A stretch of 47,953 bases of DNA from a virus. Lineage: Duplodnaviria > Heunggongvirae > Uroviricota > Caudoviricetes. Positions 1 through 24,385 of the stretch are shown here, piece after piece. Location: IMG/VR virus record IMGVR_UViG_2554235123_000011. One strand, written 5' to 3'. The position numbers and the translations under genes were made by a program. The stretch's first letter is position 1. Each line of letters opens with the position of its first letter. Below the pieces are notes generated by a model, which was given only the letters and a program-made list of their open reading frames with translations, searched no databases and was not told where the DNA came from.

Positions 1-175
1 TTACTCTGCAGGTGAAGTCGGCCACTCAATATCAGGTGCAGTTGATGTATCAACACGATTCAACAATACCCGATATTTATTCCATGCCTCCAGCAACGAT
101 CTTTCTTCCGCCGTTGCGATTTCCAGATCTACAGCATCCTGCAGTGGCGCAATATACTCACTGAATTCCTGGATG
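1..175. repeat. Direct repeat copy 1 of the tfa 3' end (roughly 85% identical to 1047..1222)
   Basis: Visible nucleotide alignment: ggccactcaatatcaggtgcagttgatgtatcaacac... occurs at both 20..60 and 1070..1110 and continues for about 170 bp. Confidence 0.6.
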
Positions 176-267
176 TGGAACTGTGTGGTGACGGTCTTCC
201 AGTCATTCGGCTCCTGCTGTATCGAAGCATACCAGGCTATTTCAATATCGCTATGCTGCGGCAGCAT
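1..267 (-). CDS. Small protein (88 aa) consisting of a tail-fibre-assembly (Tfa) C-terminal domain; duplicate of the tfa 3' end
   Basis: C-terminal ~50 aa ([45 protein letters not shown]) nearly identical to the C-terminus of the full tfa at 1047..1631; ATG at 267 preceded by AAGGGG; stop at 1..3. Confidence 0.5.
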
Positions 268-323
268 TTAACCCCTTGTAATTCATCGCCATAATTGATT
301 TAATTCACAAATAAAACTATAAC

Positions 324-992
324 ATGGTGAAATCAATGAAAAAAAACACAGATGATGGGGCTAAAATTTACACACCACTTACCCTAAAGCTTTATGACTG
401 GTGGGTTTTGGGAGTATCAAATCGGCTTGCATGGGGATGTCCTACAAAGGAACACCTTCTTCCACACTTTCTGGAACATGTAGGTAACAACCATCTGGAT
501 ATTGGTGTTGGAACTGGGTTTTACCTTACTCACGTACCTGAGAGTAGTCTGATATCTTTAATGGATTTGAACGAAGCTAGCCTGAACGCGGCATCTACAA
601 GGGCTGGGGAATCAAAAATTAAACATAAAATTAGCCATGATGTTTTTGAACCTTATCCCGCGGCGTTACATGGTCAATTTGATTCCATTTCCATGTTTTA
701 CCTTCTTCACTGCCTGCCTGGAAATATATCTACAAAAAGCTGTGTAATACGCAATGCGGCGCAGGCCTTAACTGACGATGGAACTCTATACGGAGCCACA
801 ATTCTTGGCGATGGAGTTGTGCACAATAGCTTCGGTCAAAAACTGATGCGCATTTACAATCAGAAAGGCATCTTTTCAAACACAAAAGATTCCGAAGAAG
901 GCTTAACACATATACTCTCAGAGCATTTCGAGAATGTTAAAACCAAGGTTCAAGGTACTGTAGTAATGTTTTCCGCTTCAGGGAAAAAATAG
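324..992 (+). CDS. Class I SAM-dependent methyltransferase (222 aa), substrate unknown
   Basis: Gly-rich SAM-binding motif I (LDIGVGTGF) followed by an acidic motif II region (LMDLNEA); no DPPY or PCQ DNA-methyltransferase motifs seen. Confidence 0.7.
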   Translation: MVKSMKKNTDDGAKIYTPLTLKLYDWWVLGVSNRLAWGCPTKEHLLPHFLEHVGNNHLDIGVGTGFYLTHVPESSLISLMDLNEASLNAASTRAGESKIKHKISHDVFEPYPAALHGQFDSISMFYLLHCLPGNISTKSCVIRNAAQALTDDGTLYGATILGDGVVHNSFGQKLMRIYNQKGIFSNTKDSEEGLTHILSEHFENVKTKVQGTVVMFSASGKK

Positions 993-1046
993 CATCCAAC
1001 CGCAGCACGTTCTTGCTTAAGACGTGCTGCGGCATAATCCCAATGA

Positions 1047-1222
1047 TTACTCCCTGACAGGGTTCGTAGGCCACTCAATATCAGGTGCAGTTGATGTATC
1101 AACACGGTTCAGCAACACCCGATACTTTTTCCAGGCTTCCAGCAATGAGGTTTCTTCCTCCGTTGCAATTTCCAGATCTGCAGCATCCTGAAGCGGCGCA
1201 ATATGCTCACTGGCTACCTGCA
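1047..1222. repeat. Direct repeat copy 2 of the tfa 3' end
   Basis: See copy 1 at 1..175. Confidence 0.6.
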
Positions 1223-1631
1223 TCAGGTTGTTTTTTGTTTCTTCCGCCTCCCGGATCCGGAACAGTTTTTCTGCTTCCGTATCCTTCACCCAGGCTGTGC
1301 CGTTCCACTTCTGAAACTCCCCTTCCGGCGATAACCAGGTAACATTTTCCGGTAACGGACCGAGTTCAGAAATAAATAACTCGTCCCCTGACGCTACGTC
1401 ATAAACCGTTTTCCCCCGATGGTCTTCAACGAGATGCCACGATGCCTCATCACTGTTGAAAACAGCCACAAAGCCAGCAGGAATATCTGGTGGTGCAATA
1501 TCGGTACTGTTTGCTGGCAGACCTGTATGAGGCGGAATATATGCGTCACCTTCACCAATAAATTCATTAGTTCCGGCCAGCAGATTATAAATTTTTATGG
1601 TCCGTGCTTGTTCACTCATTCTGAATGCCAT
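1047..1631 (-). CDS. tfa: Tail fibre assembly protein Tfa (194 aa)
   Basis: Immediately downstream of stf with overlapping stop/start; conserved Tfa C-terminal domain; lambda-like position. Confidence 0.85.
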
Positions 1632-4600
1632 TATGCAAGCCTCACAATATAGTTAAATGCGATGTTTTTGACGGTGTTTTCCGCGTTACCCGCAGCGTTA
1701 ACGGTGATGGTGTGTCCATGTGAACCAATCGCAACGGAGTGCGTATGCGCACCAATACCTACAGTATGTGCATGTGCGCCAGAACTTGCTGCAGTACCAG
1801 ACAGCGAGTGGGTATGAGCACCTGCTGACTGTGTCTGAATACGTTGATAATACGATCTATAGGAAGAAGTCTCCGGGCTTACTTGATACTGTGAATTCTG
1901 GACATAAGTGAACCCACCGCCATCATAAAATGCTAACGCAGAACCGCCGCCTCCTGGCCAACGAATACCATTACCATGAGTATGAACACCGGCAGACCCC
2001 GTAGAGCCACTCAGACTGTGCGTATGCGCCCCGGTGTTATTCGTGGATTTAGTGCCGTAATCAAACGACGATGTGGTTTTCGTCCCCAAATCCGTACTGG
2101 ATGCGCTGGCGCTGTGGGTGTGCGATTTTATGCCGTCCTGTTCCTGAGACAATACGGCCCGGCCACTGGCGGGTTTGCCCTTGATTGTCCAGCCGCGCAT
2201 ATCTGGAATAACACCTGAAGGATAGGCAATAGCCAGTTTCGGATATGCTGCCTTATCAAACGTCTGCCCCTGCATGATCGCATAACCTGCAGGTGGTGTA
2301 TCTGATGGCCACGGCAGCGGAACACCTGGCGGAAACGCTTCAATATTTGCCGAGCCGTCAAATTTTACGCCGTTAATTGTCCTTGCAGTTTGCAATTTGG
2401 TTGCTGTGCTTGCATTACCCGATAAAGATCCAGTGATACCACCACTCGCGTTTAATTTAGTTGCAATTGTAACATTGCCAGTATGGTTACTAATTATAAA
2501 CGGCCTTAAGCTATTGTGCGTACCAAGACTGTTACCCGAATCTGTCAACATAAAATATGTGTTTGATCCATCATTTCGGATAAAGAATCCATAGTTGCCA
2601 TAGGCAATACGCAGACCATTTGCTGACCTTGAAATAACCTCACCAGCAGCAGTTAAACCACCTGAAAGAGTCCCTCCAGTTAATGCCAATGCCCCAATAT
2701 TTGAAGGGGTCAATGTGATATTTGCACTACCATCAAATGACACACCGTTAATCGTTCTGGCTGCCTGAAGTTTCGTGGCGGTCGCAGCATTACCTGTAGT
2801 GTTTTGATTACCGGTAGCGTTGACTCCAGGCAAGTTGATATCTGCCGATCCATCAAATGCCACGCCCCCAATCTTACGTGCTGTCTTGATCTTGGTCGCA
2901 GTATCTGCGTTTCCGGTCAAATTACCAGTAACACTACCACCAACTTTTAGTCCATTACCGATGGACACCAACCCTGATCTTAAGTTTATAGAGAATGGTC
3001 TTAATGAACCGATGTCTCCATTTTCCCCCTCCCCTTCATTAGTCGGAATAAGATGAAGATGATCTTCGGAACGCCTAAAAATAAGGCCAAAGGCTTGGTT
3101 GAATATTCGAAGAGCATTTATCGTGCTGATTTTTAACTGCCCTCCCATTGTGTCGCCAGTTTTTTGAACTGAACTATCTTTAACAGTTTTAACTGCCTTT
3201 GGCGTTGCCGCCAGCTTTTCACTGGTGCTGTTTGTTGCACTGCTGAGCTGTACTATCCCCTTTTTCGTCGTGCTCGCATCCTCCAGCGCCACGGCGGATG
3301 CAATATCCTCTGCCCGTTTTGCTGCTGTCTCGGCGCGCGTTGCCGCGGATTCAGCAGCAACTTTGCTCTGAGATGCAGCCGTCGCACTGCCTGCCGCCTC
3401 TGATGCTTTCGTTGTTGCTGTCGTGGCACTACCTTTCGCTGCTGACGCTTGTCTGGTCGCCTCATCTTTTGAAGCAGACGCAGATGATGCCGATGACGCC
3501 GCTGAACTGGCTGACGATGCGGCTGCCGCCTTAGAGGAAGCAGCATTGTCTGCTGAAGTCTTTGCATTTGTTTCAGAGGTTTTTGCTGCAGAAGCAGACC
3601 TCGCTGCTGCAGTGGCTTGCTCAGTGGCTTTGCCAGCCTTCGTTGTGGCTGTTGAAGCGGATGATGCGGCGCTTTCTGCCGATTTTCCGGCGGCGGTGGC
3701 ACTGGCTGAGGCCTGCCCGGCACTTGTTGACGCGGCACTGGCAGATAATGCAGCCGCTGTTTTTGAACCTGCCGCAGCTGAGGCGCTCTGTCCCGCTGCT
3801 GTTTCAGAAGACTTAGCGTTCGTCTCGGACGTTTTTGCCGCCTTCGCGGAATTTCCTGCCGCCGTTGCCGAGGAAGCTGCACTACTGGCACTTGATGATG
3901 CATTCGTTTCTGAAGATTTCGCTGCCTCTTTTGAGGCCGCCGCACCCCGTGCCGAGGTGGCAGCTTCTGACGCCTTCATGGTCGCTGTGGATGCAGAAGT
4001 GGCTGCCGATTTTTGTGATGCTGCGGCATTCGTTTCTGACGTTTTCGCGGCACTGGCGCTGGTAGCTGCCGCGCTTTTTGATGACTCTGCAGCAGCAGCA
4101 CTTTTTGCTGCTTCACGGGCCTTTGTCGATGCCGTTCCTGCGCTGGAAGACGCTGACTGAGCCGACGACGCGGCCTGTCCGGCTGACGTGCTGGCGGCAC
4201 GTGCTGAGGCTGCAGCATCGGTTGCATGAGTTGCCGCCTCGCTGGCTGATGCACTGGCATCGCTGGCTGATTTTTTCGCGGCTGCCGTATTCTGTGCAAC
4301 CGCGGAGGCGTTACGTGACACCTCTTCCACCATCTGCTCAAAGCGGCGCAGTGCCTCCGGTCGGACATCATCCTCCGTCATGGCACCGAGAAAATCATTC
4401 AGCGTACCTGGTCTGGAACCTTCATAGACGGTAATGGTCCCGGCATGTGAAGGCGGAAAACCTTCAACCAGCAGGGTGACGCTGTACTGGCCATGCCCAA
4501 CATCCATGCTGTAACGTCCGGCTTCATCCGGATTTTCAGAGGCCACCGTGTTCACCACCACCGTGCTGCTGGTTCGTCTGGCCTTCAGCACAATGGTGCA

Positions 4601-4657
4601 GTTCTGTACTGGTTTTCCTGTGCCATCTTTAAGCACGCCAGAAATTTTTACTGTCAT
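1631..4657 (-). CDS. stf: Side tail fibre protein Stf (1008 aa) with a long Ala/Ser/Thr-rich repeat region and Gly/His-rich C-terminal repeats
   Basis: N-terminus [22 protein letters not shown]... and C-terminus ...[31 protein letters not shown] match lambda Stf as remembered; low-complexity AS-rich middle. Confidence 0.9.
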
Positions 4658-22473: not shown

Positions 22474-24385
22474 TCACTCCTCCGGACAGCTTCGCTGCCA
22501 GTTCTTTAAGGGTTGGCCGGGTCGTCTCTTCTTCCCGGGATTTTGCCAGTACAGCCAGATCAAGCTGCCAGCGTTGCACGGACACACGTAATGCCGCGTA
22601 GGCATACACCAGGCAGTCCAGCGCTTCGTTACGCCGCTTTTTGTTATCCCACAGCAGACGCATCTTTCCTTTTTCCCACTTCTCCACAAGCTCTTCCGCG
22701 ACCAGTTGCTGCGCCTCTGTCTGCGAAAAAATCTCCGGATCATCAGGAAAACGGATGGCATACGACGTGGCTTCATCCGCAGGCGTGGGCTCGGCTTTCA
22801 TACGGGCATAGAGAATTTCTTTTGCGGTGTCCGTCCCCACTTCACACAGATAAACGCCCCGCTGATTGCGGGTTTTCGGCATGGTGATCACCGGCTTGCC
22901 ATAGACAGACGCGCCTTTTACCGGCAGCACACGGAAAACACCGTGTTTTTTTGACCTCTGGTAGACGATTTCACCATCGATCCCCCCGGTGTCCCAGCAG
23001 ACACGGGAAATGGTCATTTCGGTGCCATCCGCATGGCGGTATTTTTTGTTGATCGCCGCATCCACACGTAACAGCGTCTCTTCCTCATCAGGACGCCCCA
23101 TAATGATGATTTTATCCACCAGAAAAGCTTCCTCTCCCGGTGCCCATCCCCAGACATACATCTCAAAACGGTTTCGCTGCGAGTCAATGCCCGCCGTCAG
23201 ATAAACCACCCGGGCAGGCACCGCCGCCGTGTAACGCACAACCTTATCCATCAGCACCTGGTGATCGAGTTTTTCGCCCACGGCCTCTTCCCAGGTCTCG
23301 CCCAGCGTGGTGTTCACAAAGGTTTTCAGGCCGTTGGGATCTTTCAGTGCATCCAGCCAGTCATAGACTATCTGTACCCAGGTGGTGAACGGACTGTACG
23401 CTGTCCAGATATGGAACGTGATGGAGCGCGGCGGCGGAATTTCATTATCCGCGGCGCTGAAAAACGTCAGACCGTCACGGGTCCACATCCCCGTGTTTTC
23501 ACAGATCCACCGCCCGTTGCTCTGGTCAAGCTCAGACTGATGGATCACGCAGCCATGATGTTCACAGAGGTAGAAAACGCTTTCGGGGCTGTCCTTCTCC
23601 CATTTAAGGCCAAAAGGCGTGGATTCATCGCCAAATTTCAGATACTGCTCCTCCCCACAGTGTGGGCAGGGCACATAAAAACGCATGAAATGCGCCGACT
23701 CGTTGGCCGCTTTTTCGATCTGGCAGGTGCCTTTGATTTTAGGCGTCGAGCCGCGAATGGATTTGGGCCATACAGAGCCCTCAATACGTTTATCCCCAAG
23801 CAGGGTTGGCGAACCCTCTTTTTCGACATCCGGTTCGAACGAGGAAAGTTCGTCATAGCAGACCACGTCCACGGATTTTTCACGGTAGTTTTTGGCGGCA
23901 GCGCCGCCCAGGCACCAGAAACCCACACCCGATGAAAAGCGTTTCAGCGTGAGGGTATTGTCACGATGTTTACGCCCCAGCCATGGAAAAAGGTCTTTCA
24001 GACATGGCACATCCCGAATCGTCGCCTCCACGTGAGACTTCATAAAATCTTCAGCGGCAGAATCCGTGGGCTGAAAAAGCAGACTGTTTCGGGATTTATG
24101 CTCAATAAAATACCCGACCACCCCCAGCAACATCTTTGTATAGCCAACACGGGCAGATTTAATCAGATTAACAGTCCGGATCTGATCATTCCCCATGCTG
24201 TTCATGATGGCGATCTGGAACGGCAGCGTTTTCCATTCTCCCTCACCATATGAAGATTCTTTAGGCAGATAATAATTTTGATCAGCCCATTCAACTGGCG
24301 TCACCGGCAATGCCCTTATCAGGGGCTGTAATGCTGTTGTGACAGCACTCATCATATTATTCAGTTGTTGCTCTGATATATTCAT
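22457..24385 (-). CDS. A: Terminase large subunit A (~642 aa from MNISEQQ...)
   Basis: lambda gpA-like throughout as remembered (e.g. CPHCGEEQYLKFGD, WTAYSPFTTWVQIV). Confidence 0.95.
   Translation of the reverse strand: MNISEQQLNNMMSAVTTALQPLIRALPVTPVEWADQNYYLPKESSYGEGEWKTLPFQIAIMNSMGNDQIRTVNLIKSARVGYTKMLLGVVGYFIEHKSRNSLLFQPTDSAAEDFMKSHVEATIRDVPCLKDLFPWLGRKHRDNTLTLKRFSSGVGFWCLGGAAAKNYREKSVDVVCYDELSSFEPDVEKEGSPTLLGDKRIEGSVWPKSIRGSTPKIKGTCQIEKAANESAHFMRFYVPCPHCGEEQYLKFGDESTPFGLKWEKDSPESVFYLCEHHGCVIHQSELDQSNGRWICENTGMWTRDGLTFFSAADNEIPPPRSITFHIWTAYSPFTTWVQIVYDWLDALKDPNGLKTFVNTTLGETWEEAVGEKLDHQVLMDKVVRYTAAVPARVVYLTAGIDSQRNRFEMYVWGWAPGEEAFLVDKIIIMGRPDEEETLLRVDAAINKKYRHADGTEMTISRVCWDTGGIDGEIVYQRSKKHGVFRVLPVKGASVYGKPVITMPKTRNQRGVYLCEVGTDTAKEILYARMKAEPTPADEATSYAIRFPDDPEIFSQTEAQQLVAEELVEKWEKGKMRLLWDNKKRRNEALDCLVYAYAALRVSVQRWQLDLAVLAKSREEETTRPTLKELAAKLSGGVNGYSR

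Follow-up and report, generated by a model that had tools for sequence, protein, structure and literature searches.

Right-end cargo of a lambdoid prophage at potB/potC: a ybcY methyltransferase cassette between two tfa 3' ends

Described relatives and the prophage setting

The tfaD (b0561), ybcY (b0562) and tfaX (b0563) genes form an annotated locus of the DLP12 prophage in Escherichia coli K-12, and the same genes, in the same order and orientation, stand at the left edge of the DNA described here, a 47,953-nt stretch of a tailed-phage genome (IMG/VR record IMGVR_UViG_2554235123_000011; hereafter the window). The element in question is the methyltransferase gene ybcY, which lies between direct repeats of the 3' end of tfa, the tail fibre assembly gene. 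Positions 21-1485 of the window are 96.7% identical to the K-12 locus over 1465 nt. The repeat-flanked methyltransferase block is thus already known as tfaD-ybcY-tfaX and is very common in E. coli, and the novelty implied by an initial annotation made from the sequence alone falls away. Phage annotators already use "YbcY" for the methyltransferase, and the literature on ybcY and tfaX consists of incidental mentions only. The two loci differ in their state of repair: in DLP12, ybcY is a pseudogene, tfaX encodes 61 amino acids (aa), tfaD lacks its native 5' end and appY and ompT follow, whereas the window has three intact open reading frames (ORFs) in what looks like a complete phage, with tfaX directly beside attR at potB. 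We consider it likely that the region is the right-end cargo zone of a lambdoid prophage at potB/potC carrying a widespread ybcY cassette, swapped via tfa 3' ends.

The features of the block are as follows, with the analyses on which each rests.

1..267, minus strand: tfaX, a chimeric 88-aa ORF (ORF list, Pfam, PHROG, BLASTP, PGAP)
17..174, no strand assigned: left direct-repeat copy, a tfa 3' end, tfaX allele (repeat search, alignment, site comparison)
268..335, no strand assigned: AT-rich divergent spacer between tfaX and ybcY (consensus scan for hexamers)
336..992, plus strand: ybcY, a class I S-adenosylmethionine (SAM)-dependent methyltransferase, probably 218 aa (222 aa from the ATG at 324); cargo gene (Pfam, homologues)
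998..1046, no strand assigned: hairpin between the convergent ybcY and tfa, stem about 1008-1041 (fold -28.5 kcal/mol, z -3.4)
1047..1631, minus strand: tfa, full-length 194-aa lambda-type tail fibre assembly protein (Pfam, lambda homology)
1066..1223, no strand assigned: right direct-repeat copy, the 3' end of the functional tfa (repeat search, alignment, site comparison)

Phage lambda resembles the window on the tail-fibre side. Its homology to the block is confined to 998-1700 (94%), which takes in tfa and 51 bp with the hairpin, after which lambda continues with ea47. The likeness extends to stf, tfa and the downstream hairpin, which are 94% identical (tfa itself shows 94% DNA identity to lambda orf-194, and the hairpin also lies just 3' of lambda tfa), and the cargo sits in the position of the non-essential b region, where lambda has ea47, ea31 and ea59 in place of ybcY and tfaX. 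TfaX shares the conserved C-terminal domain of the Tfa/Caudo_TAP (PF02413) chaperones but lacks their variable fibre-binding N-terminal domain and does not stand behind a fibre gene.

Textbook morons have low GC content, promoter- and terminator-like signals of their own and presence/absence polymorphism. By sequence, ybcY resembles them in base composition and in presence/absence polymorphism. The cassette has 41% GC against 51.5% for the window. Junction-specific queries at the potB site find the cassette in 823 genomes and find 46 empty, and ybcY is also absent from lambda; the initial description of the methyltransferase as cargo is well founded on these grounds. Promoter-like hexamers (no more numerous than chance predicts) precede the gene and a hairpin lies at its 3' end. 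The best reading of ybcY, judged on its sequence and relatives, is a captured chromosomal gene carried as a moron.

The window is a whole lambdoid prophage between potB and potC, in which tfaX is the last ORF before attR. The initial annotation could not see left of position 1 and proposed a leftward extension; in ATCC 25922 this extension reaches potB 231 bp beyond the end of tfaX and places tfaX next to attR, while xis-int closes the prophage at the other end, followed by potC. The potABCD operon is thereby split between potB and potC. The window edges are the tfaX stop codon and the int end (1 and 47953), which looks like a prophage call trimmed at gene ends. Other prophages continue differently: in PhiR26_1, 2G7b, ev243, PhiR68_2 and DLP12 further cargo comes after the cassette, first an alpha/beta hydrolase gene or appY and next ompT, with int beyond them.

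The block is widespread. Window positions 1-1700 match at 100% identity in 40 of 40 complete E. coli chromosomes among the matches listed, including ATCC 25922, and are present at 80% coverage or more in 1499 of 5426 complete genomes. The ybcY gene alone, at a minimum of 95% identity, occurs in 3799 of the 5426, or about 70% of E. coli genomes. As a discovery the block therefore counts for little, being annotated in K-12, present in most E. coli genomes and equipped with tfa 3' homologies that served in recombination experiments in 2004. What is added beyond annotation is the chimeric origin of tfaX, the join site of the cassette at the level of alleles, the filled and empty counts at potB and the coincidence of the IS009 family with tfa.

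In the direction of the tail operon, the region runs stf, tfa, hairpin, convergent ybcY, divergent AT-rich promoter spacer, tfaX and attR. On the favoured reading, ybcY would be a self-contained foreign gene added to the phage genome, as its low GC, promoter-like signals and stand-alone chromosomal relatives in other Enterobacterales suggest. The direct repeats are no insertion scar; they are the conserved 3' ends of two different tfa alleles, encoding a helical trimerisation domain. An illegitimate recombination event long ago may have fused the left tfa end to the first ~31 codons of a gene from a second family, here called Z, which normally seems to head a Z-plus-Peptidase_S24 pair beside cargo genes, and the product would be the chimeric tfaX. 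The tfa 3' segment would then act as portable homology, with homologous crossovers inside it swapping the cassette between phages, and in this window a left crossover in the perfect block 20-57 would have linked the cassette to the tfa end already resident in a phage of the potB type.

Probable exchange through the tfa 3' end

A methyltransferase gene bracketed by direct repeats of the tfa 3' end is what the initial annotation described, and repeat search and local alignment bear this out: an ungapped 158-nt repeat at 87% identity joins 17-174 to 1066-1223, the two copies differing at 21 sites. The limits first given, 1..175 and 1047..1222, are about 16-19 nt too generous at the stop-codon ends; the final 16-19 nt before both stop codons are unlike, and the proteins end in PTSPAE (tfaX) and PTNPVRE (tfa). 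The repeat contains a 37-nt block without a mismatch (21-57 = 1070-1106), a sequence with exactly two occurrences in the window and none expected by chance.

Tfa proteins pair a variable N-terminal domain, which binds the fibre, with a conserved C-terminal domain, which mediates trimerisation (PMC9608196). The tfa 3' segment is nearly invariant because it encodes the latter. Breakpoints were mapped in a sample of 80 IMG/VR loci encoding an identical YbcY, in which homology to the right ends at window position 1032, 1038, 1144, 1167, 1192, 1360 or 1580, or else continues. Beyond the breakpoints inside the repeat lie other Tfa types (175, 187 or 231 aa) that share the conserved C-terminus only, or a 32-aa tfa stump that abuts fibres with a C-terminal chaperone domain of their own (2G7b, Ayreon). 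The last ~200 bp of lambda tfa recombines via Red with both DLP12 copies, namely ybcX (= tfaD) and "an unnamed gene fragment" (= tfaX) (Poteete et al., 2004; PMC545071). Breakpoints inside the conserved 3' end and these published data together support a cassette that spreads by homologous exchange within the tfa 3' end. The locus offers a worked example of a nearly invariant gene end that serves as portable homology, shuttling cargo between phages with unrelated tail fibres and leaving chimeric pseudo-ORFs behind.

The left junction can be placed at the level of alleles. In a site-by-site comparison, window positions 1-57 and the attR flank match the tfa 3' ends at empty potB sites without a difference. 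Phage 204576 and most IMG/VR loci carry the commonest form of the cassette, whose left copy keeps a stop codon of the lambda type and a hairpin that has diverged, so that the repeat extends to ~227 bp; the diverged second hairpin copy after tfaX is seen in loci L003, L019 and L020. In the window, an end of the potB type has replaced the lambda-type end of the left copy, and the junction falls within the invariant block 20-57. The earlier proposal that the cargo was acquired by recombination within tfa therefore gains support from the breakpoints at 20-57, 1144, 1167 and 1192 and from the Red experiments, and fails only in so far as it made the repeats a duplication formed on arrival, since their synonymous divergence is too great (see below).

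Prophages that lack the cassette show what the site looks like without it. In E2348/69 and four other genomes with a prophage at the potB site, stf-tfa ends 232 bp from potB and ybcY is absent; tfaX in ATCC 25922 ends at 231 nt. The upstream parts of the empty-site tfa genes are 93-96% identical to the window tfa, and this difference of 4-7% indicates that the empty prophages are not recent derivatives of this prophage.

Deletion of the cargo across the repeats, raised as a possibility in the initial annotation, is mechanistically plausible given the 37-nt perfect block. A clean product did not emerge: a synthetic hybrid of tfaX 3' and tfa 5' sequence, searched against the 5426 genomes, finds no full-length match at 99% identity or above, and its best matches, at 95.3%, lead to the empty potB prophages. 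The deletion seen in phage Ayreon skips the repeats. Ayreon (L015 3239-3587) keeps window 957-1192 and 181-297, which correspond to a tfa stump with the hairpin and the final 36 nt of ybcY, and to the 5' region of tfaX. Nearly all of ybcY (298-956) is lost across a 4-nt overlap, and there is no tfa sequence beyond 181. By its sequence, the loss of ybcY in Ayreon is an illegitimate deletion, independent of the repeats.

Phage 2G7b (L002 5137-6513) carries a 345-aa fibre with a self-chaperone-like C-terminal end, a 99-aa hydrophobic protein, a non-coding 120-bp tfa stump and then the cassette, in which the frameshift in tfaX gives two annotated ORFs. In PhiR68_2 (L097 4419-5592), a PinQ/PinR-type serine recombinase gene and a YnaE-family gene stand between tfa and the ybcY cassette, and the position of the pin gene indicates that the cassette can adjoin a tail-fibre region bearing an invertase. 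An invertible tail-fibre segment of the Pin/Gin/Cin type was considered for the window and rejected: the repeats are direct rather than inverted and no recombinase lies nearby, the first ~9 kb holding only the stf, lom and J genes and no recombinase gene in the ORF list or in PGAP annotation.

tfaX and the origin of the repeat copies

The 88-aa ORF joins two unrelated sequences. Codons 32-88 encode the C-terminal trimerisation domain that is conserved among Tfa proteins, and codons 1 to ~31 (window 267-175) derive from Z (phrog_3893), an unrelated family of prophage genes for a 79-aa protein. Against Caudo_TAP, tfaX matches only profile positions 75-131 of 131 (E 6e-25), as the initial annotation had recognised in calling it the Tfa C-terminal domain alone, whereas the 194-aa Tfa matches positions 1-130 (E 2e-44). 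Profile positions 1-74, the variable fibre-binding domain, are unmatched, and residues 1-31 resemble the Z family instead. Among PHROGs, tfaX matches phrog_2341 over its full length and phrog_3893 over residues 3-37, and in a pairwise BLASTP residues 2-37 align at 50% identity (36 aa, E 2e-10) with the N-terminal part of the 79-aa product of an ORF in Klebsiella phage Kp4882-3. PGAP labels tfaX an N-terminally incomplete tail fiber assembly pseudogene. Read from its sequence, tfaX is a chimera in which the start codon, Shine-Dalgarno sequence and 5' end of a Z gene are fused to about codon 137 of a tfa. The Shine-Dalgarno sequence, AAGGGG, stands 6 nt ahead of the ATG (ORF 267..1, minus strand). 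The ORF's own start and Shine-Dalgarno sequence, noted at the outset, are thus present, but the Z-like N-terminus and the retention of that region in Ayreon without a tfa repeat argue that both were borrowed from a Z gene rather than built for a short Tfa.

The Z family, named "DNA polymerase V" at NCBI, is widespread in Enterobacterales prophages. Look-ups that return full-length Z genes find a Peptidase_S24 gene directly after them, near an integrase, and all look-ups find cargo upstream of Z, such as gtrABC, a retron-type reverse transcriptase or a resolvase. Z and a UmuD-like Peptidase_S24 form a conserved two-gene module at integrase-proximal prophage ends (L016 3504-4071; L109 and L111 4001-4631).

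The spacer that separates tfaX from ybcY holds two promoter-like pairs of hexamers, TTAACC-16-CATAAT (268-295) and TTGATT-17-TATAAC (295-323). Such hexamers are no more frequent than chance predicts, the consensus scan finding 3 against 2.8 expected. In K-12, genomic SELEX (systematic evolution of ligands by exponential enrichment) with RpoD gives a holoenzyme peak at the ybcY/tfaX spacer, which is also flagged for H-NS (PMC3946193), and the hexamers listed there for ybcY map to the second pair in the window.

These data bear on whether tfaX is a working gene. A protein consisting of the trimerisation domain alone might aid fibre assembly, or might act as a poison on the Tfa trimers of lambdoid, P2 or Mu-like phages that share the cell or superinfect it. 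In ~55 of the 80 IMG/VR loci sampled the ORF is 88-89 aa long, and it has its own PHROG family; its Shine-Dalgarno sequence is good, RNA polymerase holoenzyme binds the K-12 spacer, and the Tfa C-terminal domain is the part that mediates trimerisation (PMC9608196). Against such a role, tfaX has decayed in several lineages: K-12 retains 61 aa of it, 2G7b has a frameshift, and in the PhiR26_1 type other sequence takes the place of its 3' end from window position 43. PGAP classes tfaX as part of a pseudogene, its 5' end is the leftover of another gene, and it lacks the domain that binds fibres. Its upstream neighbour is the divergent ybcY and attR follows it, so that no fibre gene stands directly upstream. 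The H-NS flag on the spacer also counts against such a role. Polymorphism within the cassette shows 4 synonymous and 7 non-synonymous differences in the N-terminal part of tfaX, no sign of constraint, although the counts are few and confounded by recombination and by the choice of loci. A working tfaX is accordingly unlikely in our estimation, and from its sequence and decay the ORF would be a by-product.

The repeats might alternatively have arisen in situ, by tandem duplication of the tfa 3' end and hairpin, with ybcY inserted later between the copies. The ~227-bp repeat unit of the commonest cassette form, which takes in the stop codon and the downstream hairpin, does look like a duplicated gene end. 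The divergence of the copies speaks against this origin, with 0.47 synonymous substitutions per synonymous site (dS) and a ratio of non-synonymous to synonymous rates (dN/dS) of 0.20. The left copy was compared with seven full-length tfa alleles (five empty-site alleles, lambda and K-12 tfaD) and with the tfa of the window as an eighth sequence. The eight differ from one another by 1-10 mismatches, whereas each differs from the left copy by 17-22, a matrix that suggests tfaX lies outside the clade of the adjacent tfa alleles. At sites 58-172, tfaX carries about 12-14 bases absent from the seven alleles, and no full-length tfa more than 89% identical to the left copy occurs in 50,697 phage records. 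The left copy is, moreover, joined to Z-derived sequence that in Ayreon exists without any tfa repeat. Duplication in situ is highly improbable; given the dS, the tfaX-specific bases and the lack of any closer full-length tfa, the copies are, on sequence grounds, old and separately evolved tfa alleles rather than a duplication made when the cargo arrived.

Several points weigh against a cargo zone swapped through tfa 3' ends. No donor allele for tfaX positions 58-174 emerged from the phage collection, and the persistence of an 88-89-aa tfaX in most sampled loci is also compatible with usefulness. The 3'-end pattern of the empty prophages (tfa-type to site 58, tfaX-type at 1-57) is precisely the one expected from a crossover in block 20-57. 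These prophages may be relatives that were never filled, or may reflect old events in other lineages; repeat-mediated deletion long ago could in principle have produced them. We infer the direction and order of the recombination events, and their order is not provable from sequence. Expression of ybcY in the lysogen, and of tfaX, is likewise presumed from sequence.

YbcY and neighbouring sequence features

YbcY is a class I SAM-dependent methyltransferase. The plus-strand ORF at 324-992 (222 aa) matches the generic Pfam models Methyltransf_12/23/25/11, and the protein has a glycine-rich motif I, the conserved acidic residues and a Rossmann-like fold of seven strands in a confident AlphaFold2 model (pLDDT 91.5). 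The class assigned at the outset is upheld, while the length is probably 218 aa: most homologues are 218 aa long, and the homologues and the PHROG profile begin at the second ATG, at 336, which is therefore favoured as the true start. Salmonella, Enterobacter and Yersinia have homologues at 56-65% identity, which are lone chromosomal genes in non-phage neighbourhoods unrelated to one another. An N-terminal helix, YTPLTLKLYDWWVL..SN..AW.C, is conserved in the YbcY family and specific to it.

Comparison with described enzymes narrows the function only to a broad group. YbcY shares 11-21% identity with the small-molecule class I methyltransferases JHAMT, UbiG/Coq5, DhpI, BelI/CysG, NodS and bacterial PmtA. 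A PDB sequence search returns weak generic matches only, and YbcY falls far below every NCBIfam cut-off, including the equivalog cut-off for the phospholipid N-methyltransferase PmtA (15.7 against 390 bits) and that for RquA (16.9 against 175 bits). Its structural similarity to 8ys9, used for the comparison with PmtA, is no better than its similarity to many other methyltransferases. Most likely, to judge from the fold, YbcY would methylate a small molecule or lipid in the lysogen. A more specific pair of roles was also entertained, with YbcY as a lysogenic-conversion enzyme acting on an envelope lipid or metabolite (for example phosphatidylethanolamine, as PmtA does) or an expressed TfaX sabotaging fibre assembly of competing lambdoid, P2 or Mu-type phages; taken jointly, these are very unlikely. 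Methylation of a lipid or metabolite by YbcY, if true, would alter phage or host interactions. With an intact and highly conserved methyltransferase, apparently of the small-molecule kind, in about 70% of E. coli genomes, the question left is biochemical and concerns its substrate and its benefit to the lysogen.

A role on nucleic acid, in phage DNA modification or anti-restriction, is exceedingly improbable for YbcY. The DNA methyltransferases (N6A, N4C, C5) carry a catalytic motif IV, (D/N/S)PP(Y/F/W) or PCQ, that a regular-expression search does not find in YbcY, in agreement with the initial report of no DNA-methyltransferase motifs, and the 218 aa leave no room for a target-recognition domain. 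Its Pfam matches are to generic small-molecule models only, PADLOC gives no defence-system match and its homologues are lone chromosomal genes outside phages. Last, the caution that the repeat might be an assembly or annotation artefact is refuted by a block that recurs at 100% identity in genomes finished independently of one another, two ATCC 25922 assemblies and K-12 relatives among them, and by repeat copies that themselves differ at 21 sites.

Two further features adjoin or overlap the block.

1090..1288, minus strand: Rfam RF02111 (IS009), matched over its full length within the tfa reading frame (225.2 bits; gathering score 117)
1631..4657, minus strand: stf, side tail fibre gene, 1008 aa, upstream of and co-oriented with tfa (ORF list; PGAP on the identical ATCC 25922 sequence)

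RF02111 is listed as an RNA gene, and its match coincides with the tfa 3' coding segment, the whole model corresponding to the right repeat plus 65 nt upstream. A second match, at 41-244 on the minus strand inside tfaX, scores 108.8 bits, just below the gathering score. The synonymous-biased divergence of the repeat copies points to protein-coding constraint rather than RNA structure in this segment, and the family may be just conserved tfa coding sequence.

Within stf, positions 3253-4371 form a long Ala/Ser/Thr-rich stretch of low complexity that gives rise to long spurious ORFs in other frames and to short direct repeats. The hairpin region has a second match in lambda besides the one next to tfa: window 993-1033 pairs with lambda 24161-24202 (L006 5162-5203), an inverted 42-nt match at 86% in the b region.

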